64,000 nt of DNA from Burkholderiales bacterium (GTDB lineage: Bacteria > Pseudomonadota > Gammaproteobacteria > Burkholderiales > JBBRTU01). The stretch spans positions 32,592-96,591 of the forward strand of contig JBBRTU010000008.1 of assembly GCA_038244115.1 (NCBI GenBank), in the 5' to 3' direction. Positions 2,638-64,000 of this stretch are shown one piece after another; position 1 is the first letter of the stretch; each line of letters begins with the position of its first letter. The notes beneath the pieces are model-generated. The model made no database searches. It worked only from the letters and a program-made list of their open reading frames with translations, and was not told the origin of the DNA. Both the position numbers and the translations under genes were made by a program.

Positions 2638-2649
2638 TAAAGCATTGGG

Positions 2650-3203: not shown

Positions 3204-3216
3204 TGTGATTGGATCC

Positions 3217-10553: not shown

Positions 10554-12087
<1,534 letters not shown>

Positions 12088-15619: not shown

Positions 15620-15643
15620 CCGCATAACAGAATTGAAATCTAG

Positions 15644-17053
<1,410 letters not shown>

Positions 17054-48672: not shown

Positions 48673-49333
48673 GTTTGGCCAGTAACGGTGACGAAAACTT
48701 TTGACCCGAAACGTAAACATGATCGGGAGCGATAGCTAATTTGGCGGCAAGACAAATGGCGCAAGAGGATATCGAAAATTTTTCCAGAGCCTAACGTAAG
48801 GCAGCGCGCCAACAAGAAGGAAGCGATGCCAATTGTCTACCGTGTAATTCAGAAATTGAACTGGCATTACGCCAATATCACGCGGTTTATCGACCAGAAG
48901 AACAACGGAGTTGTATCAGAGTGCTACGGTCGTTGGCTGCGCACAAGATTGCGTACGGATGGGGCAAAGGGGTTTATGTTTGGCGGTTTTGCCGCATCCG
49001 TTCCGACCCCTAGAAGATGAAAATGCCTTGGTAGAGATCACCGTGATGGCACCGGAGGAGTGGCGAGCATTGCCTCGTGGCCACTTCCACGGACAGGTCT
49101 GGGTTAAGCTGCAACAGGTGGAAGCACCTTCTGGCGCAGGAAGAGGCCGAGAGTTTGATTAATTAAGGGATAATTTCCAGGTATGCGGATAAAATCCAGA
49201 GAGCATTCGCCAAAAGTTCGACACCGCAGTTGAGAAAGCGACACGGTTTTAATTCGTTTTTATCTTGTTTCTGCCTTCAAGCAATCACATAAACACGTTC
49301 CACAGGCTGCTCTAGGATGCTGTGCGCATAGTC

Positions 49334-49349
49334 TGGCACGGAATCTGCT
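49334..49349 (+). promoter_or_regulatory. Near-consensus sigma-54 (-24/-12) promoter TGGCACGGAATCTGCT
   Basis: Differs from TGGCACG-N4-TTGCW at a single position (C for the first T of TTGC), with correct GG-N10-GC spacing. It lies 158 nt upstream of the sugar-transferase ATG, and a sigma-54 activator (prsR) is encoded in the same cluster. Confidence 0.6.
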
Positions 49350-49365
49350 CTGGTCATGGGCACCC

Positions 49366-49381
49366 TGGCAAACATATCGCA
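49366..49381 (+). promoter_or_regulatory. Second, weaker sigma-54-like element TGGCAAACATATCGCA
   Basis: GG-N10-GC spacing is conserved, with 3 mismatches outside the GG/GC cores. 32 bp downstream of the first element. Confidence 0.25.
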
Positions 49382-49506
49382 GCCCAAATGAATCAAGCCT
49401 TAAAAAGTCTTATGAGCCAAGTAATAAAGATGAACGAATATGCCTATACGCATGCCATGCAACAGCTAGCATTGAAGAGTATTGCTATCATGGGGAAGCA
49501 ACGATC

Positions 49507-50904
49507 ATGATTCGATTTTTCAGACACTACATCCCTGCTCATATCTTATTGCTAGTCGCTTTGGAAGCGCTAATCATGGTCGTATCCGTTTATCTGGGCG
49601 TAACAACCCGATTTTTTGATACAGGACAGGCGCTACCGGTATCAGTGGATCCGTTGTTACCCAAAGCGATAGTGTTTGCGCTAGTCATGCTGCTGACTAT
49701 GACTTCGTTGGGTCTTTATCACTGGGAGTGGATAGATGGTGCTTGGGGAATGGTATTGCGCATGACGATGAGTTTTGTCGTTGGGTTTGGCGTGATGAGC
49801 TTACTCTTTTATTTGTTTCCCTCGCTATTTCTTGGGCGCGGCGCATTCCTGATTTCTTGCGGGGTGGCGTTGAGCGGTGTTGGGCTAACGCGGCTGTCAT
49901 TTTTTAAATGGGCGAATTTGGACGCGCTAAAACGCCGTACGCTGGTACTTGGTACCGGAAGCCGCGCTGCCAAAGTCGAGGCCTTGCTAAAGGCAGGCGC
50001 TGGCGAAAAGAGATTGCACATTGTTGGATATTTACCATTGCAGGGCACGCACCATTATGTTGAGCATTCGCGCGTATTGCCCGACGAAGATTCGATCCTC
50101 AGCGTGGTCGACAAATACAATATCGACGAGATTGTTATTGCTGTGCGTGACCGTCGTGGTGGCGGGTTGCCAATCAGCGAGTTGTTGGAATGTAAACTAC
50201 GCGGAATTAATGTGATTGAATTATCCGGTTTTTTTGAGCGCGAAGTCGGCCAGTTGCAGCTTGAGTCATTGAATGCGAGCTGGATGATATTGTCCGAAGG
50301 ATTTCACCAAGGCTTAATACGGGATACGGTTAAACGTGTATTCGACTTGGTAATGAGCGGTGTGGTGTTGGCTGTATCGCTACCCGTAATCATTGTAACG
50401 GGCCTCGCTATCCGATTGGAAAGCAACGGGCCGGTGTTATATCGCCAGGAGCGGGTTGGTCAAAATGGAAAGCAATTTACTATTTTCAAGTTCCGTAGCA
50501 TGCGTGAAGATGCTGAGGCAGATGGCATGCCGCAATGGGCAGACGCCAATGATAGCCGTGTGACAAAAGTTGGACGGATTATCCGTAAACTACGCATCGA
50601 CGAGTTACCCCAACTGTTTAATGTGTTTATGGGGGAAATGAGTTTTGTTGGACCCCGTCCAGAAAGAGCTTTTTTTGTCGAAAAGTTAAATCAGGAAATT
50701 CCTTACTTTGGTTGCCGGCATAGTGTTAAACCAGGCATTACCGGTTGGGCACAAGTTCGCTATCAATATGGCGCAAGCATTGAGGATGCCATCGAAAAAT
50801 TGCAATATGACCTGTATTATGTGAAGAATCACAGCCTGTTTTTGGATTTAATGATAATGTTTCAAACCGCGCAAGTAGTGCTTTGGGGGCGCGGGGCGCG
50901 GTAA
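49507..50904 (+). CDS. PEP-CTERM-system-associated priming sugar transferase (EpsB/WbaP-like polyprenyl-phosphate glycosyl-1-phosphate transferase)
   Basis: 465-aa ORF with an N-terminal multi-TM region (MIRFFRHYIPAHILLLVALEALIMV) and the bacterial sugar transferase core PVLYRQERVGQNGKQFTIFKFRSM...DELPQLFNVFMGEMSFVGPRPER. Directly precedes prsK/prsR/prsT. Confidence 0.85.
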   Translation: MIRFFRHYIPAHILLLVALEALIMVVSVYLGVTTRFFDTGQALPVSVDPLLPKAIVFALVMLLTMTSLGLYHWEWIDGAWGMVLRMTMSFVVGFGVMSLLFYLFPSLFLGRGAFLISCGVALSGVGLTRLSFFKWANLDALKRRTLVLGTGSRAAKVEALLKAGAGEKRLHIVGYLPLQGTHHYVEHSRVLPDEDSILSVVDKYNIDEIVIAVRDRRGGGLPISELLECKLRGINVIELSGFFEREVGQLQLESLNASWMILSEGFHQGLIRDTVKRVFDLVMSGVVLAVSLPVIIVTGLAIRLESNGPVLYRQERVGQNGKQFTIFKFRSMREDAEADGMPQWADANDSRVTKVGRIIRKLRIDELPQLFNVFMGEMSFVGPRPERAFFVEKLNQEIPYFGCRHSVKPGITGWAQVRYQYGASIEDAIEKLQYDLYYVKNHSLFLDLMIMFQTAQVVLWGRGAR

Positions 50905-50953
50905 CTCGCAACCAAAACGAAATTCTCGCCCCAAGTGAGGGGCGCACAATATA

Positions 50954-53035
50954 ATGATCATAAATATCGCAGCGGCTAGTTATGTATTAGCCGCGTTAGC
51001 GTTTCTCCTTCTCAGCTTATATGCCTTCCTGAGCGTAAATGGCCGTACGCACGGGGCGTCGCTGCCTCTTGCCGCCATAGTAACCGCGCTATGGGCTGGC
51101 ATTATTGCCTATGATGCGTCGCATAGTCTATTTTTATCACCCCTTGCGAATCTGCTAGAAGTGTCGAGAAATGCGGCGTGGTTCTTTTTTCTGATGCGCC
51201 TCCTTAACGTACCGAAATCAGTTGATGGAAACGCTCATCGCGGGCTACTCAAGGCGAGCGCCGGACTGTTTGGCTTCTGCGCCATTTTGCTAGTGGCCAC
51301 CTTGTATGGTGCTCTATCCGCGAGCAAAGTGGCTCAGTGGTTGTTTTCCATGTCGACTATTGGTGGTCGTGTTGTGCTGGCTATTGCAGGGCTGGTTTTG
51401 GTCGAACAGGTAATCCGCAATACCCGGGCTGATCAGCGCTGGGGTATTAAATTCCTCTGTTTTGGTTTGGGCGGAATATTTGCTTACGATTTTTTCCTAT
51501 ATTCCAACGCCATGTTATTTAAGCGCGTGGATTTTGAACTCTGGGCTGCTCGTGGTCTGGTGAATGCCTTGGTGGTTCCGCTAATCGGCATTTCCGCAGC
51601 GCGCAACAAGCAGTGGTCGCTTGATCTTGTAGTGTCTCGTCGGATGTTTTTCCATACGGCGGCTCTCCTGGGTGCCGGCGTGTATTTACTTATCATGGCT
51701 GCTGCGGGTTACTATCTTCGGGTGTTCGGAGGTACGTGGGGGGTGGTATTGCAAGCGGTATTTTTGTTTGGCGCGGCCATTCTGTTACTGGCCTTGCTTT
51801 TTTCGGGCATGCTGCGAGCAAGAATCCGCGTTTTCCTCAACAAGAATTTCTTCAACTACACCTATGACTACCGTGACGAATGGTTGCGATTAACACGGCG
51901 ACTGTCGGAAGGAGAATCCGGTACTTTGCGGGAGCGCGCTATTCAGGCAATTGCTGAGTTGGTGGAAGTGCCGGCGGGTGCGCTGTGGATGTGTCAAGAT
52001 GGCAAGGTATTTGCGCGTGTTGCCCATTGGAATATGCCAGCAGCGCTTGGCGAGGAAGCGCTTGAAGGACCTTTGGCGCGATATCTGGAGCAACGTCAGT
52101 GGGTGATCAATCTGGATGAGTATGACAGTCAACCGGAACGCTATCAGGGGCTTGTGCTTCCAGAGTGGGTTAGATCTGTGCCACGCGCTTGGCTGGTGGT
52201 GCCACTCATTGTGCATGAGCGGTTGCTCGGGTTTATGCTGCTGGCACGCTCGCTTGGCCAGGTGACGTTCAATTGGGAAGTGAGCGATATGTTGAAAACG
52301 GCAGCCCGTCAGGCTGCTACTAACCTAGCTCAAATGGAGGCCAGTGAAGCGCTGATTGTGGCGCGTCAATTTGAGGGGTTCAACCGGATGGCGGCATTTG
52401 TGGTGCATGATTTAAAAAATCTTGTGGCGCAACTGTCGTTGATGGTTGCAAACGCGCAAAAATACAAGCATGACCCGGAGTTCCAGGATGATATGATCAG
52501 TACAGCCGAAAATTCTGTTGAAAAAATGAATAAGTTGCTGGCACAGTTGCGAACCGGCGACACCGGTTTTGGTAATGAATCCAGCATGAATTTGGCTAGC
52601 CTGTTGCGAGAAACCATCGACAGCAAGAATGCGTATCGTCTAAAACCTTCACTACAACAACATACAGAGGACATTTTTATACGTGCAGATCGAGAACGTC
52701 TCTTGCGTGTGATTGGGCATATTATTCAAAATGCCATTGAAGCAACACCTTACGACGGTAGCGTGGAGGTGCGGGTTAACCGGAGAAATGCCACAGCAAT
52801 TATCGAGGTAGTAGACAACGGTTGCGGTATGGATGGGGCGTTTATTCGCGAACGGCTATTTCGTCCTTTTGATTCAACCAAAGGTTCGGGTATGGGCATT
52901 GGGGCTTACGAGTGCCGTGACTATATACACGAGCTGGGGGGGCAGGTAGAAGTGGCTAGCCTTGTCGGGAAAGGAACCACATTTCGTATAGAATTGCCGA
53001 TACAGGCGAATGACAATAGCGGAGTGATACAGTGA
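50954..53035 (+). CDS. prsK: PEP-CTERM system sensor histidine kinase PrsK
   Basis: 693-aa ORF with about 300 aa of polytopic membrane domain, a GAF-like middle region, an H-box (FVVHDLKNLV) and an HATPase domain (DNGCGMD, GSGMGIG). Start/stop overlap (GTGA) with the sigma-54 regulator gene. Confidence 0.85.
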   Translation: MIINIAAASYVLAALAFLLLSLYAFLSVNGRTHGASLPLAAIVTALWAGIIAYDASHSLFLSPLANLLEVSRNAAWFFFLMRLLNVPKSVDGNAHRGLLKASAGLFGFCAILLVATLYGALSASKVAQWLFSMSTIGGRVVLAIAGLVLVEQVIRNTRADQRWGIKFLCFGLGGIFAYDFFLYSNAMLFKRVDFELWAARGLVNALVVPLIGISAARNKQWSLDLVVSRRMFFHTAALLGAGVYLLIMAAAGYYLRVFGGTWGVVLQAVFLFGAAILLLALLFSGMLRARIRVFLNKNFFNYTYDYRDEWLRLTRRLSEGESGTLRERAIQAIAELVEVPAGALWMCQDGKVFARVAHWNMPAALGEEALEGPLARYLEQRQWVINLDEYDSQPERYQGLVLPEWVRSVPRAWLVVPLIVHERLLGFMLLARSLGQVTFNWEVSDMLKTAARQAATNLAQMEASEALIVARQFEGFNRMAAFVVHDLKNLVAQLSLMVANAQKYKHDPEFQDDMISTAENSVEKMNKLLAQLRTGDTGFGNESSMNLASLLRETIDSKNAYRLKPSLQQHTEDIFIRADRERLLRVIGHIIQNAIEATPYDGSVEVRVNRRNATAIIEVVDNGCGMDGAFIRERLFRPFDSTKGSGMGIGAYECRDYIHELGGQVEVASLVGKGTTFRIELPIQANDNSGVIQ

Positions 53036-54390
53036 GCGCGACACGCGGTACTTTGCTGGTAGTGGAGGATGATCCGGGACTGCAAAAGCAGTTGCGTTGG
53101 AGCTTCGATGGATATGATGTGCAAATTGCGGGTGATCGGGAAACAGCCATAAACCTGTTGCGGCGCTTCGAGCCACCTGTTGTGCTATTGGACCTCGGTT
53201 TGCCACCCGACCCAAATAGTGCCACCGAGGGTTTGTCCACGCTGGAGCAAATCCTCGGGCTTTCCCCGGCTACCAAAGTGATTGTTGTCACCGGCAATCA
53301 GGATCGAGTCAATGCGGTCAAGGCGATCGGCATGGGTGCGTTCGATTTTTATCAAAAACCGTTCGATTCCGAAATGCTTGGCATGATTGTCGCGCGGGCG
53401 TTTCGCGTGCATGAACTAGAACGCGAAAATCATTCCTTATTGGTGCGCCAATCGGAATCCCCCATGAAGGGCATAGTTACTGCTGACCAGCAGATGCTCA
53501 AGCTGTGCCGCACGGTGGAGAAAGTTGCGCCATCCGATGCAACGGTCTTGTTATTAGGCGAATCGGGCACAGGCAAGGAATTGCTGGCGCGGGCAGTACA
53601 GCAGCTGAGTGCGCGTGCCGATAAGCGTTTTGTCGCCATCAATTGCGCGGCGATTCCAGAAAACCTGCTTGAATCTGAGCTGTTTGGCTACGAAAAGGGC
53701 GCATTTACGGGCGCTTCCAAACATACTATCGGACGCATTGAATACGCCAATGAAGGTACCTTGTTCTTGGACGAAATCGGAGATTTGCCGCTCCCTTTGC
53801 AGGCCAAGCTGCTGCGTTTCTTGCAGGAGCGGGTGATCGAACGTTTAGGTGGTCGCGGGGAAGTGCCTGTCGACGTGCGTGTGGTCTGCGCCACGCACCA
53901 GAATTTACCAAATCTAATCAAAGAAGGCCGTTTTCGCGAAGACTTGTATTACCGGGTAAGTGAAATCACTTTTTTAATTCCGCCGCTCAGGGATAGGGAA
54001 GGCGACCCGGCGCTACTGGCACATGCTTTTCTGGACAAATTCAGTAAGCAGCAAAGCCGTACAATACGCGGCTTTACCCCGGACGCCATGGAGGCGATCG
54101 AAGCTTACCCATGGCATGGAAATGTGCGTGAAATGGAGAATGTCATCAAGCGTGCCGTGATTATGGCTGAAGGGGCCCAAATTACCGCTCCCGATCTTGG
54201 TTTGGCGGCAGCACAATCACAAGCCGAGCCAATAAATTTACGCCAGGTGCGAGAAGAGGCAGAGCGCAAAGCGATCATTCGCGCGGTAAGCCGCGCTAAC
54301 GGAAATGTTGCCCAGGCGGCAGAAATGCTTGGGGTCAGTCGCCCCACGCTGTATGACCTGATTGGTAAATACGGCTTGAAACAACCGTAA
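53032..54390 (+). CDS. prsR: PEP-CTERM-box sigma-54-dependent response regulator PrsR (NtrC/AtoC family)
   Basis: 452-aa ORF with a receiver domain (LLVVEDDPGL, VVLLDLGLPP), an AAA+ sigma-54 interaction domain (GESGTGKE, GAFTGA, ELFGYEKGAFTG) and a C-terminal Fis-type HTH (NVAQAAEMLGVSRPTLYDLI). Confidence 0.9.
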   Translation: MSATRGTLLVVEDDPGLQKQLRWSFDGYDVQIAGDRETAINLLRRFEPPVVLLDLGLPPDPNSATEGLSTLEQILGLSPATKVIVVTGNQDRVNAVKAIGMGAFDFYQKPFDSEMLGMIVARAFRVHELERENHSLLVRQSESPMKGIVTADQQMLKLCRTVEKVAPSDATVLLLGESGTGKELLARAVQQLSARADKRFVAINCAAIPENLLESELFGYEKGAFTGASKHTIGRIEYANEGTLFLDEIGDLPLPLQAKLLRFLQERVIERLGGRGEVPVDVRVVCATHQNLPNLIKEGRFREDLYYRVSEITFLIPPLRDREGDPALLAHAFLDKFSKQQSRTIRGFTPDAMEAIEAYPWHGNVREMENVIKRAVIMAEGAQITAPDLGLAAAQSQAEPINLRQVREEAERKAIIRAVSRANGNVAQAAEMLGVSRPTLYDLIGKYGLKQP

Positions 54391-54431
54391 CCATCTTGAA
54401 CAAAATTCTCCTGAGATCAAAAGGAATGTAC

Positions 54432-57218
54432 ATGAGCAAACGATTTAATAGAGTGATCACATCGGCTACGGTCTTGTTGGTGGTAATGGGTGGTTTGGCA
54501 GGTTGCGACCATGTGTTCGGCGTAGGTGAGCAGGAGCTGATCCAGCGGGCCAAAAATTTCAAGGACAAAGGGGATACCAAGGCTGCCATTATCGAACTTA
54601 AAAGCGCTTTGCAGAAAAATCCAAATAGCGCTGAGGCGCGCTGGTTGCTGGGACAGGTATATGTTCTGGCTGGACAGGGCAGCAACGCCGAGAAAGAGCT
54701 GGCGCAGGCGGCCAAGCTCGGCATAAAGGAGGAATCCATTGCGGCGTCAATGGGACAGGCGTTACTTCTGCAGCAGGACTACGAGCGCGTGCTTAAGGAA
54801 GTTAAACTCAATCCTAAGGCTTCCCCCAAAGATGCAGCGAGGATTCTGCAAGTGCAGGGCGAGGCACAACTTGGTCTGGGCCGCGTGGAACAAGGGTGTG
54901 ATTTGTATAAACAAGCACGCCAGTTTGACCCTGGCTATGTCCCGGTTTATTGGGGACTGGCTCGCTGCAACGTGGTGGAAAAAGACTTTGTACGAGCCAA
55001 AAGCCAACTTGAACAAGCGGTGAAGTTAGAACCGAAGAATGCAACCTCATGGATATTGCTTGGGAACCTAGCAAATTCGAGGGCTGACTTTGCAGCAGCA
55101 GAGGGCGCTTACACCAGTGCATTGAAGGTCGATCCAAATAATAGCGCTGCCCATTTAAATCGTGCCTCACTGTATTTGAACCTGGGCAAACTCGATGCAG
55201 CCCAAATTGAAGTCAGTGCGGCGAAAAAAGCAGACCCTAGCAACCCCGCAGCCATATATATGCAGGCACTTGTATCTTTTCGGCAGGCCAAGTACACCGA
55301 GGCGCGGGATAGTCTGCAAGAGGTCTTACGGATTGCACCAACGCACATGCCAAGCATATTGCTTTTCGGGGCTGTAGCCTATGAGCTTGGGAGCTACGAA
55401 CAGGCCGAAAAATACGCGACCAAATTCCTTGAACAGAATCCCGATAGCGTATATGCCCGTAAGATGCTGGTTGCAACGCAGTTGAAATCTGACCAGCTGA
55501 CGCGGGCGCAGGAAACGCTGAAACCGCTGCTCTCCCAAGAAAAGCCGGATGCACAGACGCTGGCATTGGAAGGTGAGGTATCGCTGAAGACGCGAGACTA
55601 TGTCAAAGCGAAAGAATTTTTCGAAAAAGCAATTGAACTTGACCCCAAAAATACCGCACTGCGCACGCAATTGGGTACAATTCGTTTGGCCAGCGGTGAC
55701 TCGGCAGGTGCAATCGGGGATTTTGAAAAAGCCGCCAGCCAAGACCCCTCTTCCTTTGGGGCCGATACCATCCTGATTCAGACTTTCTTAGGCAAGAAGG
55801 AGTGGGACAAGGCGTTTCAGGCCATCGCCGCGCTGGAGAAGAAACAGCCGAAGAACCCGATAACGTTCGATCTCAAGGGCGCTGCCTATGTTGGCAAGAA
55901 CGATTTCGCCAATGCCCGCAAGAGTTTTGAGCAGGCATTAGCGCTACAACCTACCCACTTTACTGCGGTCATGAGCCTGGCGCAACTGGACCTCAAGGAC
56001 AAGCTCCCCGAGGCTGCGCGCAAGCGTTTCGAGGACGTCCTGGCGAAAGACAAAAATAATATGCAGGCAATGTTGGCACTGGCCAACATTGCGGCGGGCA
56101 GTGGCAAAGAACTGGAATATGTAAGTTGGCTGGAAAAAGCGGCCAAGGCTAATCCTTCGGCTCTGCAACCGCTTGCGCTTTTGGCGAACTACTATGTGCA
56201 GAAGAAAGAGCCCCAGAAGGCGCTGAGGATAGCGCGCGATGCGCAAACTGCCAACCCTCAAAATCCCGACTCGCTGGATTTACTCGGCTCGGTACAATTT
56301 GCCGCAGATGAGAAGGAAAATGCACTCGCGACCTACCGCAAGCTTGTTCAATTGGTTCCCAAATCGCCGGTCGCCCACTACAAACTTGCCTCGATGCAGG
56401 CCACCGTTAAAGATGCTGCTGCTGCGCGGATATCTTTCAATAAGGCACTGGAACTTAAACCGGATTACCTTGAAGCGCAGACCGCGTTGATCTTGCTGGA
56501 AATGGAAAGCGGCAAGCCTGTGGAAGCAGTCAGAATCGCACAGAACATCCAGAGCCAGTCGCCCAAATCGCCTATGGGCTTCGCTCTGGAAGGCGATGTT
56601 CTGATGGCGCAAAAAAAATACCCCGAAGCGAAAAGCGCGTATGAAAAAGCCTTAGCGATTGGCAAAAATGGCTTGTTTGCTGTTAAGGTTCACCAGGCAC
56701 AAAGTCTCGCTGGCGATGTAAAAGGGGCTGATGCCGGGCTGCTCCAATGGTTGAAAGAATACCCCGACGACGTGGCTGTTCGTGGCCACTTGGCGCAGAC
56801 TTATATGCAAGCGGGGAGGAACAAACAGGCCATCGAACAATATGAGTTCATCTTGCAGAAAAGCCCGAATAGCGTCCCCGTGTTGAACAACCTCGCTTTT
56901 CTTTATCAGCAAGAAAAGAGCCCACGCGCCTTACCTATTGCCGAGCAGGCCTATAAACTCAGGCCGGACGTGGCTGAATCCGCCGATACGCTAGGGTGGA
57001 TTCTGGTGGAGCAGGGCAAGGTTGCGCGTGGTGTCGAAGTGTTGCAGAAAGCGGCTGCGGCAGCACCGAAGGATCCAGAAATTAGCTATCATTATGCGGT
57101 TGCATTGGTCAAATCGGGCGACAAGGCAAAGGCTCGCAAGCAGCTCGAGGCCTTGCTTGCCACCGGCCAGAAATTTCCGCAAATGGAACAAGCCAAGGTG
57201 CTGCTAAAGCAGTTGTAG
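54432..57218 (+). CDS. prsT: PEP-CTERM system TPR-repeat lipoprotein PrsT
   Basis: About 928 aa, with lipobox LAGC after a signal peptide (MSKRFNRVITSATVLLVVMGGLAGC) followed by TPR repeats throughout. The ATG at 54432 has an AAAGGA Shine-Dalgarno at suitable spacing; the ORF-track TTG at 54396 is less likely. Confidence 0.85.
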   Translation: MSKRFNRVITSATVLLVVMGGLAGCDHVFGVGEQELIQRAKNFKDKGDTKAAIIELKSALQKNPNSAEARWLLGQVYVLAGQGSNAEKELAQAAKLGIKEESIAASMGQALLLQQDYERVLKEVKLNPKASPKDAARILQVQGEAQLGLGRVEQGCDLYKQARQFDPGYVPVYWGLARCNVVEKDFVRAKSQLEQAVKLEPKNATSWILLGNLANSRADFAAAEGAYTSALKVDPNNSAAHLNRASLYLNLGKLDAAQIEVSAAKKADPSNPAAIYMQALVSFRQAKYTEARDSLQEVLRIAPTHMPSILLFGAVAYELGSYEQAEKYATKFLEQNPDSVYARKMLVATQLKSDQLTRAQETLKPLLSQEKPDAQTLALEGEVSLKTRDYVKAKEFFEKAIELDPKNTALRTQLGTIRLASGDSAGAIGDFEKAASQDPSSFGADTILIQTFLGKKEWDKAFQAIAALEKKQPKNPITFDLKGAAYVGKNDFANARKSFEQALALQPTHFTAVMSLAQLDLKDKLPEAARKRFEDVLAKDKNNMQAMLALANIAAGSGKELEYVSWLEKAAKANPSALQPLALLANYYVQKKEPQKALRIARDAQTANPQNPDSLDLLGSVQFAADEKENALATYRKLVQLVPKSPVAHYKLASMQATVKDAAAARISFNKALELKPDYLEAQTALILLEMESGKPVEAVRIAQNIQSQSPKSPMGFALEGDVLMAQKKYPEAKSAYEKALAIGKNGLFAVKVHQAQSLAGDVKGADAGLLQWLKEYPDDVAVRGHLAQTYMQAGRNKQAIEQYEFILQKSPNSVPVLNNLAFLYQQEKSPRALPIAEQAYKLRPDVAESADTLGWILVEQGKVARGVEVLQKAAAAAPKDPEISYHYAVALVKSGDKAKARKQLEALLATGQKFPQMEQAKVLLKQL

Positions 57219-57278
57219 TCGGTCGGTTGCGGCACACAATGTGCTTGGTGAACTAAGGCTTACCACATAGAGTCTGGG

Positions 57279-58067
57279 TTATTCCAGCTTCTTCAGGTAA
57301 TCCTTGGTAAACACCTTATCCGGTATATCTCGCAATTTCATGCCAGAGTAATCGAGCACGGATTGCTCGCCGTGACGTAACTCATCTTCCATCACCAGTT
57401 TGGTTGGTCGGATTCTGCCTGCCATAAGTTGAAAACCTTGGTACTTGCAAGTTTTCAGCAGCCTGTTGGAAAGCGAATAGAACTCGGCTTTGTAGGGCCA
57501 TGCACTGGCTTGTTTTACCCAATAAACTACGCGTTGATAAGTCACACTCCGATCCACAGCAGTAAGTTCAAGCACTTGGTAAACTTCGCCGTCGACGGTT
57601 TCGGCGCGCACGAGGCGTGGCACATAATCGCCGCTAAAGTTAGCGCGCGCCAAGTCTCCATTTGCCACCTGGCCTGTCAAACGCTGTGAAAGAGCAAGCC
57701 GCACCGGCTGTGAGACGTTGGGCATAAACACCCATAGGTCCCGCCCCTTCATGAGCATGATCTGTCCGCGTTCCGATGCGGGCTCGGTTACCATCACCAG
57801 CGCATTTTCGTTGCCCTTGGAAAGCACGCGGTACTTTCGCGCGTCGGCAACGCCTCCCTGATGGGTCGTGGTAATGGCAACATCGACTTGAAAGCTTTCT
57901 TGTGGAAATCGCACTGAGTCGGCCTTCTCAACGATACTTCGGGCCACGGGGTCTTCCATAGGAGGATTGGCCGCATCGACCGCATAACATTCCTTGACCA
58001 CGCCTGCAAACATCACAAGGATCCAAATACCATAGTGCACTGCGGCGGAGATTTTTGCCTCCATCAT
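57279..58067 (-). CDS. LolA-like outer-membrane lipoprotein-sorting family protein (periplasmic)
   Basis: 262-aa ORF with a signal peptide (GIWILVMFAGVVKECYA). The body resembles the LolA_like family often found next to FtsX-type ABC systems (MLMKGRDLWVFMPNVSQPVRL...LTGQVANGDLARANF). Divergent from the ABC ATPase gene. Confidence 0.7.
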   Translation of the reverse strand: MMEAKISAAVHYGIWILVMFAGVVKECYAVDAANPPMEDPVARSIVEKADSVRFPQESFQVDVAITTTHQGGVADARKYRVLSKGNENALVMVTEPASERGQIMLMKGRDLWVFMPNVSQPVRLALSQRLTGQVANGDLARANFSGDYVPRLVRAETVDGEVYQVLELTAVDRSVTYQRVVYWVKQASAWPYKAEFYSLSNRLLKTCKYQGFQLMAGRIRPTKLVMEDELRHGEQSVLDYSGMKLRDIPDKVFTKDYLKKLE

Positions 58068-58126
58068 AATTGTGTATACTCCATGTGACTAAGTGGTCGT
58101 CCTACCATCCCCCGCATAGGCCTAGT

Positions 58127-58900
58127 ATGAGTGTCGTAAGCGTAGAACATGTAAGCAAATATTATCTGCTTGGCGAGCAAAAAGTCCAAGCGTTAAAGGA
58201 TATCACCCTGGCGATTGAACCCGGCGTATTCCTTGCCATCGCAGGACCGTCTGGAAGCGGTAAAACTACGTTGCTTAACCTGATCGGCTGCATTGATACG
58301 CCCTCCAGCGGCAAGATATTCATCAACGGCCAGGATGTTAGTGGCAAAACACCAGACCAATTGGCGGACCTGCGCGCGCGTACCATCGGTTTCATTTTTC
58401 AGACTTTCAACCTGCTGCCGGTATTGACTGCAGCGGAGAACGTCGAATACCCATTGTTGCAATGCAAATCGTTGTCAAAAGCGGAGCGTCACGAACGTAT
58501 CGATTATTTCCTCGACATGGTCGGTCTGACCAAATTCGCCAGTCATCGCCCCAACCAGTTAAGCGGCGGGCAAAGGCAACGTGTGGCGATAGCCCGGGCA
58601 TTGGCTATCCGACCCGCAATTGTGCTGGCAGATGAGCCTACAGCCAACCTGGATTTAGCTACAGGAAAGGACATTCTGGTGCTAATGAAGCAGATTAACC
58701 ATCGGCTTAATACCACTTTCATCTTTTCTACGCATGATAGGCATGTCATGGCAATGGCCGATCGGTTGGTACGGATGGAAGACGGGGCTATCACTATGCT
58801 CGGCACCCGCAACAAGGATCAGTGGTCCATGGTGCCGGAGCGCCGCATGGTGCCGGAGCGCCGGCACGATCAAATCAATGTGGGGCAGGAAGGCATATAG
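58127..58900 (+). CDS. ABC transporter ATP-binding protein, LolD/MacB type
   Basis: Start at MSVVSVEHVSKYY. Walker A GPSGSGKTT, Q-loop FQTFNLLP, signature LSGGQRQRVAIARAL, Walker B IVLADEPTANLD. It also has an unusual C-terminal tail of about 40 aa containing the MVPERR duplication. Confidence 0.9.
   Translation: MSVVSVEHVSKYYLLGEQKVQALKDITLAIEPGVFLAIAGPSGSGKTTLLNLIGCIDTPSSGKIFINGQDVSGKTPDQLADLRARTIGFIFQTFNLLPVLTAAENVEYPLLQCKSLSKAERHERIDYFLDMVGLTKFASHRPNQLSGGQRQRVAIARALAIRPAIVLADEPTANLDLATGKDILVLMKQINHRLNTTFIFSTHDRHVMAMADRLVRMEDGAITMLGTRNKDQWSMVPERRMVPERRHDQINVGQEGI
58828..58863 (+). repeat. Perfect in-frame 18-bp tandem duplication (CATGGTGCCGGAGCGCCG x2) in the ABC ATPase tail
   Basis: Read directly in the sequence. 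It encodes MVPERR-MVPERR. Confidence 0.95.
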
Positions 58901-58918
58901 CCATTAGGGGATAAAAAT

Positions 58919-60604
58919 ATGAAAGCAACAGGGGCAAATGGAAGGTTGAGCCTAAGTGTAACGCTGGCCTTGTGCGCGGCAAGCACGTGGGCCTCAACGG
59001 CAAGTCAGGTAGGTGCGTTTTCCCAGACCGCCAATACAGAAGCAACAGCCCCTATAGTTGGCAAGGCAGGTTACGCAATTACGACACAGAAAACTAATCA
59101 AAACAAAGGGGAGCCAACCCGGGCGCTGGTTGACACCAATCCCAATACAGATATTCCGTTGACATTAAGCCAATTCCAGCGTGATGGATCACGTGTATAC
59201 GCGGTCAAGATTGCAGGGGATGCAGCGAAAGAGGGAAAGCCAATTTTGCTCGCGGCAGAGACGGCGGGCCGGGAAGGGATCATTACGCGCGATTCCCTGT
59301 TCTCAGACGTAGATGATGCCCCGAAAAAAGAAAATGCCAAGGAGTCACTATTTGGTGATGACTTAGACCTCCCGAAAAAGGAGAGCGCTGTATTCTCCAG
59401 CTGGAAAGGATTCATACAGGCCGAGTTGGCACGAACCATTGTTGGTCCCGCGCACTGGTCCAAGATGCTTACCCGCGCGGAATTTGGCAAGCAAGGCAAC
59501 CTGGGCGAAGAGATTAAGTGGAAAGCAAGCGCTCGGGTGGATTACAACGCAGTGTATGACCATGACAATTATTACCCCACTGATGTCCGCAACGACCAGC
59601 GGCTGAATTTCACCCTGCTGGAGAATTATGTCGATATCGGCGCCGGCGACTGGGATTTTCGCCTGGGCCGCCAACATGTCGTGTGGGGCGAAATGGTGGG
59701 ACTGTTTTTCGCTGATGTGGTTTCAGCCAAGGATATGCGGGAATTCATCCTGCCCGAGTTCGAAGTTTTGCGCATCCCCCAGTGGGCCGCTCGCGCCGAG
59801 TATTTCAAGGATGATTTTCACGCAGAACTGCTGTGGATTCCGGTTGCGTCCTATGACGAAATCGGCAAGCCCGGTGCAGAGTTCTTCCCTTGGGCGCCTC
59901 CAGCGCCATCTGGCTACGCTACCGTCTACAACAACGAGATACGTCCAAACCGCAATCTCGATAACGCCAACTACGGCCTGCGCCTGTCGACATTGCAAAA
60001 TGGCTGGGATGTCTCCGGTTTCTACTACCGCAGCATGGATTCGGCACCTACCTTTTACCGTGATATCGTAACCGTTCCCCAACCTACTTTCGTTTATGAA
60101 GCGCGGCATGACCGTATCGAGCAGTTCGGCGGCACAGTGGCTAAAGACTTGGGATCGGCGGTTCTCAAAGGGGAAGCCGTGTATACCCATGGACGAAAAT
60201 TCAACGTCTTGCGCCTAAACGAGCCAGATGGCGTGGTGCCGCAGGATACCTTTGATTGGGCGGCTGGGCTCGATTTCACTTTGCTCGCCGATACTCGGCT
60301 TAACCTGCAGTTGTTTCAGCGGGTGTACCTTGCGCACGATCCGGACATTATTCCAGAGAAATACGAGAACGGGTGCAGCGTACTGTTGAACAGTAAGTTG
60401 ACAGACCACATTGAGGCGCAGGCATTATGGATTTCAAGTCTTAACCGCAGCGACTGGGTGTTCCGACCGAGATTGGCGTGGACCATGGAGAAAAACTGGC
60501 GCCTGCTGTTTGGCTTCGACATCTTTAAAGGCCCACCGCTTGGGATGTTTGGCCGTTTCGACAAACAGGATCGGGCATATACCGAAATACGCTACAGCTT
60601 TTAA
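58919..60604 (+). CDS. Putative outer-membrane beta-barrel protein (DUF1302/alginate-export-like)
   Basis: 561-aa ORF with a signal peptide (LSVTLALCAASTWAS), a low-complexity N-terminal linker and an FRLGRQHVVWGE motif. It has alternating amphipathic stretches and the OMP-type C-terminus YTEIRYSF. The exact family was not verified. Confidence 0.6.
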   Translation: MKATGANGRLSLSVTLALCAASTWASTASQVGAFSQTANTEATAPIVGKAGYAITTQKTNQNKGEPTRALVDTNPNTDIPLTLSQFQRDGSRVYAVKIAGDAAKEGKPILLAAETAGREGIITRDSLFSDVDDAPKKENAKESLFGDDLDLPKKESAVFSSWKGFIQAELARTIVGPAHWSKMLTRAEFGKQGNLGEEIKWKASARVDYNAVYDHDNYYPTDVRNDQRLNFTLLENYVDIGAGDWDFRLGRQHVVWGEMVGLFFADVVSAKDMREFILPEFEVLRIPQWAARAEYFKDDFHAELLWIPVASYDEIGKPGAEFFPWAPPAPSGYATVYNNEIRPNRNLDNANYGLRLSTLQNGWDVSGFYYRSMDSAPTFYRDIVTVPQPTFVYEARHDRIEQFGGTVAKDLGSAVLKGEAVYTHGRKFNVLRLNEPDGVVPQDTFDWAAGLDFTLLADTRLNLQLFQRVYLAHDPDIIPEKYENGCSVLLNSKLTDHIEAQALWISSLNRSDWVFRPRLAWTMEKNWRLLFGFDIFKGPPLGMFGRFDKQDRAYTEIRYSF

Positions 60605-60615
60605 GGAAATCGGAA

Positions 60616-61827
60616 TTACACGTTAGCTCGCAACGCATCAAGGACAGGCGTTTTTGACACACGCGAAGCGGGTAGCAGGGCACCCAGGATCGTGGCGGCA
60701 AAGCCCACCAGGTAAGCCATGACGAGCACCGAGGGCATGATTTTGATGTGGCCTGTGAAACCCAAGTTGGCGTTGGGTGGTGGCGGCATGGGAATGCCGA
60801 TGGCTGAAATGGCCATTGCCAAGGCAGTACCCACGATAACTCCCAGCATTGCGCTAACCAGCCCCAACAAGGCGCTTTCCGTCAGAATCAGGCGAAAAAC
60901 ATGCCCCCCCCGGTTGCCCAGTGCCATCATGGTGCCGAATTCACCCAAGCGCTCGAACACGCTCATGTTAATGCTATTGGCCACGCTCAGCAGAACCATC
61001 ACTAGGATGATGAACTGCAGCACACCGAACTGTTGACGGTACATAATGACGGTTTTTTCGTAGAAGTCATTGAGCTCGGTCCAATTCTTGATTTCGTAGC
61101 CGGATTGACCGAACTGCTGTTTCAACAATGCTCCGACTGCGCCCGTGTCGCTTGTCTTGTGCAGGGAAATGACCAACGCGTTGACCCCCGAGGTAAGCAG
61201 CAATTCCTGGGCAGCAGGCAGGGCGATTCGCACGGCGCGCGCATCGTAGTCGCTAGAGAAGCTCTGGAACACCCCAACCACTTCGAAATCCAGACTGTTG
61301 AGAGCGCCCTCGGCAGCATTTGCGAGCAAGGTGACATGATCCCCAGGCTTGAGCTTGAGAGCCTTTGCAACGCCTTCACCGAGTAGGATGCCGAACGCGT
61401 CAGTATCTTTTAGTTGACGTCCCTGGCTGATTTTTAGGGAGCTACCAAGGCGGGCTTCCTTGTCAGGTTGGACGCCTTCGCCGATGACTGCCCAGTCGGT
61501 TCGGTCATTGTTCAGCAGGCCCGCGAACTGGATGCGAGCCATGACGTCGGCGACTTCCGGGCGTGCCGCAATCGAATTGCGCAAGGTCCCGGGGTTGCTA
61601 ATCAGATATTTCTCGGGCGTGCGGCTTCCCGCCTCGTAAAAACCTTGCCGGTATACTTGCAGGTGGCCGCTGCGGGAGTGGATAAGCGCTTCCCCGAGTT
61701 GGGTGAAGATATCCTGCACGAATCCACCCGAGAGGATGAGTGCCACCACGCCGGAAATGATCGCCAGCGCGGTGATCGCAGTGCGTGACTTTTGCCGGAG
61801 AAGGTTGCGTAAGGCTAGCGAGAGCAT
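60616..61827 (-). CDS. FtsX-type ABC transporter permease (LolC/E-like), paralogue 2
   Basis: Start at MLSLALRNLLRQKSRTAIT. TM1, a periplasmic domain of about 200 aa, then 3 C-terminal TM helices. Shares the SAIGIPMPPPP string and the overall layout with the upstream paralogue. Confidence 0.85.
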   Translation of the reverse strand: MLSLALRNLLRQKSRTAITALAIISGVVALILSGGFVQDIFTQLGEALIHSRSGHLQVYRQGFYEAGSRTPEKYLISNPGTLRNSIAARPEVADVMARIQFAGLLNNDRTDWAVIGEGVQPDKEARLGSSLKISQGRQLKDTDAFGILLGEGVAKALKLKPGDHVTLLANAAEGALNSLDFEVVGVFQSFSSDYDARAVRIALPAAQELLLTSGVNALVISLHKTSDTGAVGALLKQQFGQSGYEIKNWTELNDFYEKTVIMYRQQFGVLQFIILVMVLLSVANSINMSVFERLGEFGTMMALGNRGGHVFRLILTESALLGLVSAMLGVIVGTALAMAISAIGIPMPPPPNANLGFTGHIKIMPSVLVMAYLVGFAATILGALLPASRVSKTPVLDALRANV

Positions 61828-61832
61828 GGCGG

Positions 61833-63059
61833 CTACCTGTTGTGACGCAGCGCGTCGACGATGACCAGCCGCGAGGCCTTCCATGCCGGATATACGCTTG
61901 CGATCAGCGTTGTCGCCACTGCCAACAACACTGATTCAATTGCCAACGCCGGGGTGACGCGAATTTGTCCGATTAATCCATGGCTCATACCGGGCGGGGG
62001 CGGCATCGGGATGCCAATGGCAGAAATCACTTTGGCCAGCCCGAAACCGATTATCAGCCCCACGACTGCACCAATAATGCCAAGCAGTAGACCTTCGGTA
62101 AGGAACAGGCCCAGTAACTGCTTGCGGCGCGTGCCTAGCGCCATGACGGTACCGATTTCACCGGTTCGTTCCATAACGCTCATCATCATCGTATTGGAAA
62201 TGCCGAGGATAATGATGGCTCCGATAATAATTTTGACCACGCCGAATTGGTGCGAAAACAGCACCACGGTTTTGTTATAGAAATCGGCAAGCTGGTTCCA
62301 GGGTACTAGCGCGTATTTCCGGGGATCCAACTTGTTTTGCAAGGTCTCCATTATTCTTGCGGTGTCGTCAGTTTGTTCCAGCAGGGTAACCCAGATGTGG
62401 GCGCCAGATACACCCAGCAGCTCATGCGCCATAGGAAGGGGTACACGCAGGGCGGAGTCGTCATATGCCTTCGAAACGCCAGAAAAAAGTCCCCGTACAT
62501 GCCCTTCCACGGCCCTAACCCCGCCCGAAGGCAGATTCGAGAGCAACACGACCTTATCCTTAACATGGACGCCCAGATTGGCTGCAAGCCCTCGCCCCAT
62601 CACAATGCCTTTTGGGTCGCCGGGAACAAGATTCGCACCCTGGGAAAAAATCACTGACTGGTTAAGCGGCGCCTCTCGCTGGGGATCCACCCCTTCGCCT
62701 ATAAAAGATACGGTCGCCTCCCCGCTACTGACCAGCCCGCTGAACATGATTCTTGGGGCAACCGTTACTACCCCTGGCGTTCTCTCGATGCTTGCAAGCT
62801 CTGGGGACTGCGCCGGGAGTAGGTAACGGAAAGGATCGGCCGCGCCGAAATCCTGGTAGCCAGGGCGTGATATTTGTATATGGCCAAGACGGGATCGCAC
62901 CGTGTCCTCTCGCATTCCCCAGAAAATCCATTCGATGAAGCCGCCAGCCAGCAACAGAGCAATAACGCCAAAACTTACCGCAGCAAGGGCCAGCAAGCTG
63001 CGGCGTCGCTGGCGCACGACGTTGCGAAAAGCCAGAGTGAAGGTGTGCATGAAATCCAT
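61833..63059 (-). CDS. FtsX-type ABC transporter permease (LolC/E-like), paralogue 1
   Basis: Start at MDFMHTFTLAFRNVVRQRRRSLL. The part of the ORF-track product upstream of this start looks non-protein-like. Same architecture as paralogue 2, and the stop lies 5 nt before the next permease start. Confidence 0.85.
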   Translation of the reverse strand: MDFMHTFTLAFRNVVRQRRRSLLALAAVSFGVIALLLAGGFIEWIFWGMREDTVRSRLGHIQISRPGYQDFGAADPFRYLLPAQSPELASIERTPGVVTVAPRIMFSGLVSSGEATVSFIGEGVDPQREAPLNQSVIFSQGANLVPGDPKGIVMGRGLAANLGVHVKDKVVLLSNLPSGGVRAVEGHVRGLFSGVSKAYDDSALRVPLPMAHELLGVSGAHIWVTLLEQTDDTARIMETLQNKLDPRKYALVPWNQLADFYNKTVVLFSHQFGVVKIIIGAIIILGISNTMMMSVMERTGEIGTVMALGTRRKQLLGLFLTEGLLLGIIGAVVGLIIGFGLAKVISAIGIPMPPPPGMSHGLIGQIRVTPALAIESVLLAVATTLIASVYPAWKASRLVIVDALRHNR

Positions 63060-63251
63060 CGGAGTCGAGTCTCGTTGCCCGTGCTTGGGGAATTTTGGCC
63101 GGATTTTTGCAGGCGCAACAGGTGAAAGTGCTGCTCTCCTGATCTGATCCAATCTGCTTTGCAACTACGTCATCTACCCCCAATCGGAAGTAAGGTATGC
63201 AGGTGTCGAGAGCCCAGCGAAACGCGGACTCAACTCGCGTCGAATACGTGG

Positions 63252-63281
63252 ATTATCTGGTCAATTTTAGACTGGCGTCAA
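63252..63281 (-). promoter_or_regulatory. Candidate sigma-70 promoter for the permease pair (TTGACG-N18-GATAAT on minus strand)
   Basis: Motif reading only. It lies just downstream of the PEP-CTERM gene terminator and about 190 nt upstream of the permease ATG. Confidence 0.3.
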
Positions 63282-63295
63282 CAGACTATGCCACC

Positions 63296-63331
63296 GAAAA
63301 AACAAAGCCCGCCATTTTTGGCGGGCTTTGT
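63296..63331 (-). terminator. Rho-independent terminator of the PEP-CTERM protein gene
   Basis: The minus strand reads ACAAAGCCCGCC-aaaaat-GGCGGGCTTTGTTTTTTCGG: a 12-bp stem plus T-run, about 58 nt after the stop. Confidence 0.85.
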
Positions 63332-63388
63332 CAGCAAGCTAAGGAACAGCACATGTCCCCTAGCCGAAGTGCTTTACTCTGCTTAAGC

Positions 63389-64000
63389 TTATGCGCGACG
63401 GCGGGCGATACCCAATCCTAGAAGGCCCAAGCCCATCAAAGCTAGGGTTTCTGGCTCAGGTACAGTCTGAGCATCAGCTGTGGCAGTTGAACGGATGGTG
63501 AATTGATAGGCATCGGTGCTCAGCGCGACAGTCGTGCCGCTAAACCCGCAGGAATTAGCAACACCATAGCCTGCCCCCCTAAAACTTGCCCCATTAAACG
63601 GCGCGTTTCTGGAGATACCGTCGTTCAGGTTGAAACAATCGGTCTCGGCAGTAATGCCCTTTGCGCCAGCGCTGCCGGCATTGCTGGTTCCGTCTGGCTT
63701 CCAGGTGACGATGTTAGTACCGCCGGTGGTCAGGTCGTCGAGGGTGAAGACTAGGCTATACTGAGCAGAAGCATTAGTGGGGAACTTCTCTAGAGCGCTG
63801 GTGTAAGCCTCCATATATGCCCGTGCATCGAAGCTAATGGTGACCCCGCCTGCCTGTGCCAACTTGAAAATAAAGCTGGAATTAAGGCCATTATTGGCCG
63901 TCGAGCTGCCATCCTGACCCGAACCTGACAAGGAAACATAGGCTGCATGGCCTGCATGTCCAAGTGGACCCGAGCCGATGGGTGAACCCTCAATTATCTG
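63389..64000 (-). CDS. PEP-CTERM sorting-domain protein (exosortase substrate), 5' end beyond window
   Basis: The C-terminus VPEPETLALMGLGLLGLGIARRRA-stop has the canonical PEP motif, a TM helix and a basic cluster. The body is Gly/Ser/Thr/Ala/Asn-rich. I checked the frame upstream of the ORF-track start (a TTG at 63931) and it stays open to position 64000, so the gene is probably longer. Confidence 0.85.
   Translation of the reverse strand, partial: QIIEGSPIGSGPLGHAGHAAYVSLSGSGQDGSSTANNGLNSSFIFKLAQAGGVTISFDARAYMEAYTSALEKFPTNASAQYSLVFTLDDLTTGGTNIVTWKPDGTSNAGSAGAKGITAETDCFNLNDGISRNAPFNGASFRGAGYGVANSCGFSGTTVALSTDAYQFTIRSTATADAQTVPEPETLALMGLGLLGLGIARRRA

Follow-up and report, generated by a model that had tools for sequence, protein, structure and literature searches.

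A Lol-like ABC transporter cassette with a DUF1302 barrel as a candidate exporter of N-acyl amino acid-derived lipids in a Burkholderiales bacterium

The five genes of the cassette

We analysed a 64,000-nucleotide stretch of DNA from a Burkholderiales bacterium (GenBank assembly GCA_038244115.1, contig JBBRTU010000008.1, positions 32,592 to 96,591), hereafter called the window, and focused on a five-gene cassette at 57279-63059 for which a preliminary description, made from the sequence alone, had proposed a Lol-like role in envelope transport. All five open reading frames (ORFs) were recovered at the coordinates given there, and Pfam profile searches placed each of them in the family that had been guessed: a carrier of the LolA_like family (PF17131, TP_0789-like; 57279-58067, minus strand; E = 1.6e-48), an ATP-binding cassette (ABC) ATPase of the MacB/LolD/DevA type (58127-58900, plus strand; ABC_tran, E = 9e-34), a predicted outer-membrane beta-barrel of a DUF1302 subfamily (PF06980; 58919-60604, plus strand; E = 2e-14), and two permeases with MacB_PCD and FtsX domains, permease A (60616-61827, minus strand) and permease B (61833-63059, minus strand), whose closest solved relatives are LolE and LolC, respectively. 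As read from the sequence, a divergent intergenic region of 59 bp (58068-58126) separates the carrier gene from the ATPase-barrel operon, and permease B is the first gene of the permease operon. The two permeases had been described as convergent paralogues; they are indeed paralogous, but their genes follow one another in tandem, both on the minus strand, and run towards the ATPase-barrel operon rather than towards each other. Apart from ORFs overlapping these five genes, no other ORF of at least 80 aa was found between 57.2 and 63.4 kb. Neither an HlyD-family membrane-fusion adaptor nor a TolC-type gene was detected in the cassette, in the ORF list or by Pfam, and the architecture is therefore Lol-like, not MacAB-TolC-like.

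The carrier matched PF17131 only, with no LolA model and no NCBIfam model, in agreement with its earlier designation as LolA_like rather than true LolA. It is 68% identical, over 222 ungapped residues (E = 5e-101), to the crystal structure PDB 3BUU, the uncharacterized LolA superfamily protein NE2245 of Nitrosomonas europaea, so that its LolA-type fold is experimentally established; a distant similarity to 4Z48 (E = 2e-9) was also found. One structural comparison has handled 3BUU as 'LolA' (bioRxiv 10.1101/2024.08.06.606844). Since the N-terminus contains a signal-type hydrophobic segment (aa 6-24) and lacks a lipobox, the carrier is predicted to be a soluble periplasmic protein.

The ATPase contains the Walker A motif GPSGSGKT and the signature LSGGQ. 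The permeases are 40% identical to each other (E = 1.8e-90), each has the 1+3 arrangement of hydrophobic segments that had been reported, and both contain the string SAIGIPMPPPP, at residues 341 and 346; its core GIPMPPPP is kept in 47 of 60 and 61 of 83 permease orthologues and is thus a signature of most members of both permeases. With MacB_PCD and FtsX above the Pfam cut-offs, the 1+3 topology and the ATPase motifs, the transporter belongs to the type VII (MacB-type) ABC transporters. The best PDB match of permease B was LolC (7ARH, E = 4e-19) and that of permease A was LolE (E = 3.5e-15). The curated equivalog models gave far lower scores than those set for Lol orthologues: against the LolCE model TIGR02212 (cut-off 362 bits) permease A scored 94 bits and the other permease 97; the LolE and LolC models yielded 52-71 bits on the permeases against cut-offs of 439-540; and the two top NCBIfam matches of the ATPase, DevA (228 bits, cut-off 296) and LolD TIGR02211 (214 bits, cut-off 308), both failed. 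In an alignment of the LolC 'hook', the corresponding hairpin was 5-6 residues shorter in the cassette permease. Because the equivalog scores fall so far below their cut-offs, the cassette is, judged by its sequences, distinct from the housekeeping Lol system, as the preliminary description had held. In a 51%-identity relative (L168, 4427-5443) the cassette ATPase has an FHA domain at its N-terminus, suggesting that the pump of that organism is controlled in a phospho-threonine-dependent way.

The DUF1302 protein scored 53.9 bits against PF06980 (gathering score 23.2), the match being confined to profile positions 100-371; it had no match among the NCBIfam models and a weak Wzi-family match in Pfam. 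As reported before, it ends in ...YSF (...IRYSF) and contains an RLGRQxxxWGE motif (RLGRQHVVWGE at residue 248), six residues of which are invariant among 74 homologues. A signal peptide is followed by an N-terminal extension of ~110 aa, which is degenerate SPOR-like, and by the barrel at aa ~160-561. In an AlphaFold2 model built with 74 homologues, residues ~160-561 were predicted to form a barrel of about 18-20 strands, with per-block predicted local distance difference test (pLDDT) values mostly of 80-95, and the N-terminal ~160 residues were disordered or of low confidence, the extension lying outside the barrel. Foldseek matched this model with probability 1.0 to OmpF-type porins and to AlgE, the best query TM-score being 0.44-0.45 (AlgE). 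Both predictions thus agree with the earlier assignment of the 561-aa protein to the outer-membrane barrels; a model without a barrel had been named there as a point against the hypothesis. No PDB sequence relative of the barrel was found, and the DUF1302 family is without a solved structure (PMC13499233). The exact protein of the window has no database record, and a 99%-identical protein was used as a stand-in. The barrel family comprises 2430 clusters at 50% identity, 287 of them at E<=1e-30.

The N-terminal extension itself is variable. Window positions 58990-59250 (barrel residues ~25-110) align with a genuine SPOR domain in a 73%-identical orthologue, P0002 (E = 2e-10), and the SPOR match in the window barrel is degenerate (E = 0.09). 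In more distant barrels an AMIN domain replaces SPOR (P0002, L085 and L166 are the entries cited for this variation). A periplasmic-side peptidoglycan-binding module therefore seems, from these domain assignments, to recur in this DUF1302 subfamily.

Lipid genes beside the cassette and their linkage across genomes

The genes beyond the window end were read from L081, a metagenomic contig with 98.5% DNA identity to window positions 48910-64000 (15 kb). After the permeases, L081 encodes, all on the minus strand, a PEP-CTERM protein of 332 aa, a ThiF protein of 284 aa (PRK08223, 345 bits, above the cut-off of 266), an O-methyltransferase of 345 aa, a nitroreductase-type protein of 361 aa (Nitroreductase, 41.9 bits against 23.5) that resembles the Acg/Rv1355c flavin oxidases, an ORF of 90 aa and a FeeM-type N-acyl amino acid synthase (NAS) of 254 aa (E = 8e-52), followed by a PilZ protein and hemB. 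A FeeM protein, a ThiF-like enzyme and an FDO-type nitroreductase are thus encoded together, which is the gene set of the Tyz/Oxz type, and NCBIfam fusion models link the same three enzymes (PRK14852, FeeM+ThiF+oxidase; PRK14851, ThiF+oxidase). These enzymes constitute a lipid pathway that has been characterised by experiment. In Mycobacterium tuberculosis, TyzA N-acylates tyrosine, the nitroreductase-superfamily oxidase TyzC desaturates the product, and ring closure by the ThiF homologue TyzB then gives an acyl-oxazolone, C12-tyrazolone; the tyz cluster adjoins mmpL9, which encodes a lipid transporter, and what becomes of the lipid is left open by the authors (PMC10404671). Two further reports describe oxazolone production by OxzA/OxzB in gammaproteobacteria (Pseudoalteromonas; bioRxiv 10.1101/2020.06.11.147165) and tie clusters of NAS, methyltransferase, ThiF and nitroreductase to stieleriacines and kyonggic acids (PMC12479983).

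The 90-aa ORF between FeeM and the oxidase (L081 18879-19151, minus strand) was considered as an acyl carrier protein and ruled out, as it corresponds to an N-terminal ThiF fragment; a ThiF gene that was once duplicated or split has probably left it behind. PilZ genes, which encode cyclic di-GMP (c-di-GMP) receptors, adjoin FeeM in L081 (20073-20807) and in L084 (4145-4903), and L167 encodes a PilZ-FeeM fusion (2561-3586). This proximity hints at c-di-GMP control of N-acyl amino acid synthesis.

Linkage was assessed in both directions, with gene presence calls that depend on tblastn thresholds. In the forward scan, a barrel alignment was searched against species-representative genomes, with matches in at least 493 genomes, and the best 80 loci were used; these belong mostly to Rhodocyclales and related Betaproteobacteria (Propionivibrio, Accumulibacter, Dechloromonas, Azonexus, Rhodocyclus and Methyloversatilis). 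The triad of carrier (minus), ATPase (plus) and barrel (plus) was nearly invariant in the barrel-seeded loci. The permease pair lay within 10 kb in 38 of 81 loci and was absent within that distance in about a third of the long related loci. FeeM-family proteins of three different clusters recurred around the triad, as did ThiF, the oxidase, methyltransferases and an FAD oxidase, and their genes often abut it; PEP-CTERM genes, Wzz, Poly_export and tyrosine-kinase genes, ManC and a low-molecular-weight phosphatase recurred as well. Of the 45 barrel-seeded loci with a length of 20 kb or more, 32 had FeeM, ThiF or the oxidase, 27 had a PEP-CTERM ORF within 10 kb, and 20 had Prs or exopolysaccharide (EPS) genes; lipid genes without a PEP-CTERM ORF were seen in 11 and the reverse in 6. 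PrsT adjoined the triad in only 6 of 81 loci, and Wzz, Poly_export and tyrosine-kinase genes lay within 10 kb in about 20 of 81. The reverse scan searched an oxidase alignment against metagenomes and gave 80 independent loci, of which the 29 of at least 10 kb were counted: ThiF was found in 28, FeeM in 25, cassette genes in 16 and PrsT in 14. The PrsT matches that were tested are genuine TIGR02917 members, down to 24% identity.

The arrangement of individual loci shows how closely the two gene sets are interleaved and that their order is shuffled. L107 and L159 carry ATPase, barrel, ThiF and oxidase in the same direction, with the lipid genes of L159 placed between barrel and permeases, and L158 has FeeM-FeeM-ThiF-oxidase inserted between barrel and ATPase. 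In L170, whose barrel is 31% identical, FeeM, FeeM, a ThiF-oxidase fusion, ATPase, a single FtsX permease, carrier and barrel follow one another in one direction; the fusion (677 aa) matches PRK14851 over its full length, and a PEP-CTERM gene and a PrsT-like tetratricopeptide-repeat protein lie nearby. A 37%-identity relative has the carrier and an AMIN-domain barrel, followed by an O-methyltransferase of the L081-type family and ThiF, and in a 35%-identity relative the barrel lies near a PilZ-FeeM fusion. A desaturase, a KASIII-like enzyme and an acyl-AMP ligase precede ATPase, FtsX, carrier and barrel in a 30%-identity relative, which by its gene content is the same transport module coupled to other lipid genes. 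The linkage of cassette and lipid genes is thus seen in both directions and persists to 31% barrel identity.

Loci of the Accumulibacter type (L029, L041, L042, L057, L063, L069, L075 and L076, at about 2.7-8.2 kb in each) have two conserved genes immediately next to that of the carrier, one for an HDOD-domain histidine kinase and one for a receiver-PAS-GGDEF-EAL protein. Most of these loci, except L041 and L042, also contain a FeeM-like GNAT gene.

The Prs/PEP-CTERM surroundings and their promoters

The cassette had been placed directly between prsKRT and a PEP-CTERM gene, and both flanks were substantiated by NCBIfam models. Upstream (49507-57218, plus strand) lie an XrtA/PEP-CTERM glycosyltransferase (TIGR03013, 570 bits), PrsK (857 bits), PrsR (737 bits) and PrsT (898 bits), all above cut-off; downstream, the 3' part of an EDSAP-1 family PEP-CTERM gene (63389-64000, minus strand) is truncated by the window end. 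The window fragment scored 158 bits against NF041538 (cut-off 100) and the full-length 332-aa protein of L081 scored 239. These genes together identify an XrtA/PEP-CTERM neighbourhood. Literature searches for 'EDSAP' returned nothing relevant, and the PEP-CTERM protein contains no motif of these letters. When 10 PEP-CTERM proteins neighbouring related cassettes were tested, 4 passed the cut-off of the floc-associated PepA family, 1 was EDSAP-1 and 1 was THxN. The link between cassette and PEP-CTERM system that had been suspected is therefore borne out by the PEP-CTERM ORFs of the long loci, mostly PepA-type where a class was obtained, and by the frequent presence of bona fide PrsT.

Simple co-regulation of the cassette with the PEP-CTERM gene, which had also been considered, is not favoured by the promoters. 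In the L081 region that precedes the PEP-CTERM gene (15469-15713; in window numbering about 64388-64632, a short way past the end), a motif ending in TTTACA is followed by a spacer of ~87 nt, the element TGGCATGACTTGTGC and ~75 nt to the start codon, an arrangement that fits the PrsR/sigma-54 architecture of Haft 2006. Between the PEP-CTERM and permease B genes (63252-63332, minus strand), consensus scans gave two pattern matches, namely a strong intrinsic-terminator-like hairpin with a 14-bp stem (63332-63301), which would close the PEP-CTERM transcript, and a sigma-70-like match, TTGACG-18-GATAAT (63281-63252), upstream of permease B. The intergenic region at 58068-58126 contains weak sigma-70-like matches only. 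In a targeted reading that included the equivalent L081 regions, no -24/-12 element was found upstream of either cassette operon or of FeeM. With a PrsR/sigma-54 promoter at the PEP-CTERM gene only and not at the cassette, simple co-regulation is argued against, and we reject sigma-54/PrsR control of the cassette: the Haft-type enhancer with -24/-12 element occurs only at the PEP-CTERM gene, and a -24/-12-like element at TIGR03013. A scan of the whole window for sigma-54 sites with up to 2 mismatches gave 126 matches against 99 expected and was not informative. The element near TIGR03013, TGGCACGGAATCTGC (49334-49348, plus strand), lies about 160 nt upstream of the TIGR03013-prsK-prsR-prsT row and, if used as its sequence suggests, would place the Prs regulators under sigma-54 control.

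The Prs, cassette and lipid genes form an island of ~20 kb with mrcA on one side and hemB on the other. The adjoining part of the window (13-49 kb) is housekeeping in content (atpAGD, glmUS, argS, priA, hemE, gltBD, dgt, aroB, pilMNOPQ and mrcA). Family scans covered the window ORFs from 13 to 64 kb, and among these no canonical lol gene and no match to an exosortase model were detected; nor did any of the extra L081 genes bear a Pfam label for an exosortase. Elsewhere in the window, the GC content is 0.42 in the first 2 kb and about 0.53 otherwise, and two ORFs of 274 aa on opposite strands (10972-11796, minus; 10975-11799, plus) overlap almost fully.

Candidate cargo and comparison with known systems

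With moderate confidence, we interpret the cassette from its genes and their conserved neighbours as a dedicated trans-envelope exporter whose cargo would be an N-acyl-(dehydro)amino-acid or acyl-oxazolone-type lipid made by the adjoining genes. The component logic noted earlier is retained, with a type VII ABC heterodimer and its ATPase, a soluble LolA-fold carrier and a predicted outer-membrane barrel in the place of LolB. A dedicated periplasmic shuttle or export route is also kept as the probable role, with the lipid, whose gene set is the more specific and better conserved partner, in place of a PEP-CTERM protein as cargo. As the lipid genes are interleaved with the cassette down to 31% barrel identity, the likeliest cargo is the lipid and not the PEP-CTERM protein. 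From the known relatives of each part we infer the following order of events. The LolC/LolE-like heterodimer and a cytoplasmic ATPase dimer would act on the outer leaflet of the inner membrane and extract the lipid there by type VII mechanotransmission, with nothing passing through the permease itself; the soluble LolA-fold carrier would receive it and take it through the periplasm to the DUF1302 barrel, which would then insert the lipid into the outer membrane or let it through. Given the neighbourhood with PrsT, PepA/EDSAP-type PEP-CTERM proteins and EPS export genes, the lipid probably has its role at the cell surface, where it would help to form the matrix of flocs or biofilms.

Several points weigh against this interpretation. 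Its support consists of gene neighbourhood, fold and family, the direction of transport is assumed from known MacB/Lol-type ABC transporters, and the lipid genes lie outside the window and are read from the 98.5%-identical contig. Lipid genes were missing within 10 kb in 13 of the 45 long barrel-seeded loci, 7 of which also lacked PEP-CTERM, Prs and EPS genes; a PEP-CTERM ORF was nearly as common a neighbour (27 of 45) as the lipid genes (32 of 45); and one 51%-identity relative has a complete five-gene cassette beside ScmC and unrelated small ORFs. The best-80 locus lists favour close relatives, and many of the contigs are truncated. Other bacteria, moreover, produce N-acyl tyrosines and oxazolones without this cassette.

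Among the rival explanations, the sorting of a protein, which the preliminary description favoured, deserves the closest attention, although we consider it unlikely; the protein would be extracted from the inner membrane and reach the outer membrane or the surface through the barrel. Its cargo would be an exosortase-processed and, hypothetically, lipid-attached PEP-CTERM protein of the PepA/EDSAP-1 type, or the lipoprotein PrsT, and the frequent PEP-CTERM neighbour keeps both among the candidates: the ORF in the 27 long loci is a single one of ~280-330 aa within 10 kb, often directly after the barrel gene, and 6 of the 10 neighbours tested could be classed. Bona fide PrsT is a frequent neighbour, and that of the window has the lipobox LAGC; among solved structures the permeases are closest to LolCDE, a lipoprotein transporter, and archaeosortase and rhombosortase substrates end up lipid-attached. 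Yet the lipid genes are the commoner partner, occurring without the PEP-CTERM ORF in 11 of 45 loci against 6 for the reverse, and the distant relatives at 35%, 37% and 30% identity keep the linkage to lipid genes with no PEP-CTERM gene seen on their short or truncated contigs. The PEP-CTERM gene is also a separate sigma-54-type unit with a strong terminator, a promoter type that the cassette lacks, and PrsT seldom adjoins the triad (6 of 81 loci). To our knowledge, lipidation of a PEP-CTERM protein has never been shown. A reading of the whole island that would join both cargoes, and that we regard as quite improbable, is a non-canonical pathway of surface lipidation and sorting in which the PepA/EDSAP-type PEP-CTERM protein would be anchored by the acyl-oxazolone as its lipid. 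FeeM, oxidase and ThiF would make the acyl-oxazolone, a chemically activated acyl-amino-acid; this compound, or an adduct of it, would leave the inner membrane by way of the Lol-like cassette; attachment to the PEP-CTERM protein would occur there or at the surface, spontaneously or through the exosortase; and the DUF1302 barrel would be the site of insertion into the outer membrane or of exit. Azlactones react with amines without ATP. Such a pathway, if real, would explain the long-known link of NAS to PEP-CTERM/exosortase systems and tell what exosortase substrates are attached to.

The remaining alternatives fare worse against the same data. Export of a lipid-linked or polymeric EPS component with the AlgE-like barrel as its exit could be argued from the structural similarity of the barrel model to this alginate exporter, from the weak Wzi-family match and from the Wzz, Poly_export and tyrosine-kinase genes that about 20 of 81 loci have within 10 kb; those loci, however, encode their own Wza-type exporter and co-polymerase, LolA-fold carriers bind acyl chains and not polysaccharide, and EPS genes are less consistently linked than lipid genes, none being seen in the available contigs of distant relatives, which makes this very unlikely. 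DUF1302 systems that occur in gene clusters for the degradation of terpenes, aromatics and alkanes (PMC6394551; bioRxiv 10.1101/072470) would be the precedent for a general, AmeABCD-like efflux, tolerance or uptake of exogenous hydrophobic compounds, independent of the neighbouring genes. We hold such a function to be highly improbable, as no catabolic genes lie near the cassette and a reciprocal, deep linkage to a biosynthetic lipid set is unexpected for a general pump. We also know of no MacB-type transporter that acts as an importer. That the cassette is a divergent housekeeping LolCDE/LolA system for lipoprotein sorting has next to no probability, despite the LolC and LolE structures being the best solved matches of the permeases and the carrier belonging to the LolA superfamily, whose member 3BUU has been treated as 'LolA' (see above). 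The LolCE, LolE, LolC and LolD equivalog scores remain 3-8 times under their cut-offs, the carrier is a PF17131 protein with no LolA or NCBIfam model, a DUF1302 barrel stands where LolB would be, about a third of the long loci have no permease pair within 10 kb, and the neighbours are variable and accessory, the cassette itself lying within the ~20-kb Prs/lipid island flanked by housekeeping genes. With the curated hidden Markov model cut-offs failed and the context accessory, we reject the housekeeping identity.

The exporter interpretation offers a testable function for NE2245 (PDB 3BUU), for a widespread DUF1302 barrel subfamily and for a Lol-like ABC transporter family that is conserved in floc-forming wastewater bacteria (Accumulibacter, Propionivibrio, Dechloromonas and Azonexus). 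It would also add a transport step to the recently discovered acyl-oxazolone and N-acyl-dehydrotyrosine lipids. More broadly, the data suggest that specialised lipids cross the Gram-negative envelope by a modular route composed of an ABC pump, a carrier of the LolA_like family and a DUF1302 barrel.

The biosynthetic side of the island resembles the TyzABC, OxzAB and stieleriacine/kyonggic-acid sets in its enzymes, a FeeM-type synthase, a ThiF-like protein and a nitroreductase-superfamily oxidase, with a methyltransferase in addition. In term searches, for which 'DUF1302' was not a term, the papers on these sets mentioned neither PEP-CTERM nor an ABC transporter nor a LolA-like protein. A link of NAS to PEP-CTERM/exosortase was reported by Craig, Cherry & Brady 2011, as cited in PMC11072679 and PMC4897644, and term searches of both gave no match for 'transporter' or 'LolA'; the floc-genetics papers that were searched by term likewise mention no ABC transporter, LolA or N-acyl compound. 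The published link is reproduced here and extended by a transporter that lacks a description in the searchable literature, so that the cassette appears to be an undescribed third partner.

The permease superfamily is common to the cassette and to MacAB-TolC and DevBCA-HgdD, with DevA being the best NCBIfam match of the cassette ATPase, and DevBCA-HgdD, which exports heterocyst glycolipids, offers a precedent for glycolipid export. In contrast to both, the cassette has no adaptor or TolC-type channel, its ATPase is unfused, and a soluble carrier and a DUF1302 barrel are present. With LolCDE-LolA-LolB of Escherichia coli it shares two paralogous MacB_PCD+FtsX permeases, a separate ATPase, a soluble LolA-fold carrier and the lack of an adaptor. 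It differs in falling under all Lol equivalog cut-offs, in having a PF17131 carrier instead of LolA and a DUF1302 barrel instead of the lipoprotein LolB, with no LolB-like ORF present, in the shortened hook region (by 5-6 residues relative to LolC), and in its accessory, biosynthetic context.

The closest described parallel is found in the DUF1302/DUF1329/BNR(Ycf48-like)/RND systems, such as AmeABCD of Castellaniella and Sama_1588-1591, which likewise combine a DUF1302 barrel, a LolA-superfamily periplasmic protein and an inner-membrane pump, in their case of the resistance-nodulation-division (RND) type. The DUF1302 protein, the LolA-superfamily protein and the RND pump show cofitness, and export of envelope components has been proposed for them (bioRxiv 10.1101/072470; PMC6394551); a DUF1302-DUF1329 complex has been predicted with an interface predicted TM-score (ipTM) of 0.84 (PMC13499233), and such systems have been suggested to move hydrophobic or envelope molecules (PMC6394551; bioRxiv 10.1101/072470; PMC13499233). 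Unlike them, the cassette is driven by a type VII ABC motor and not by a COG1033 RND pump, its carrier is of PF17131 and not DUF1329 (PF07044), it has no BNR gene, its barrel is of a divergent subfamily with a partial Pfam match, and its neighbours are biosynthetic, not catabolic. The cassette is thus a variant of the known Lol-like and DUF1302 envelope systems, with an ABC motor in place of the RND pump and a PF17131 carrier in place of DUF1329, and the most economical reading is modular lipid export from a LolCDE-like extractor through a LolA-fold carrier to a DUF1302 barrel.

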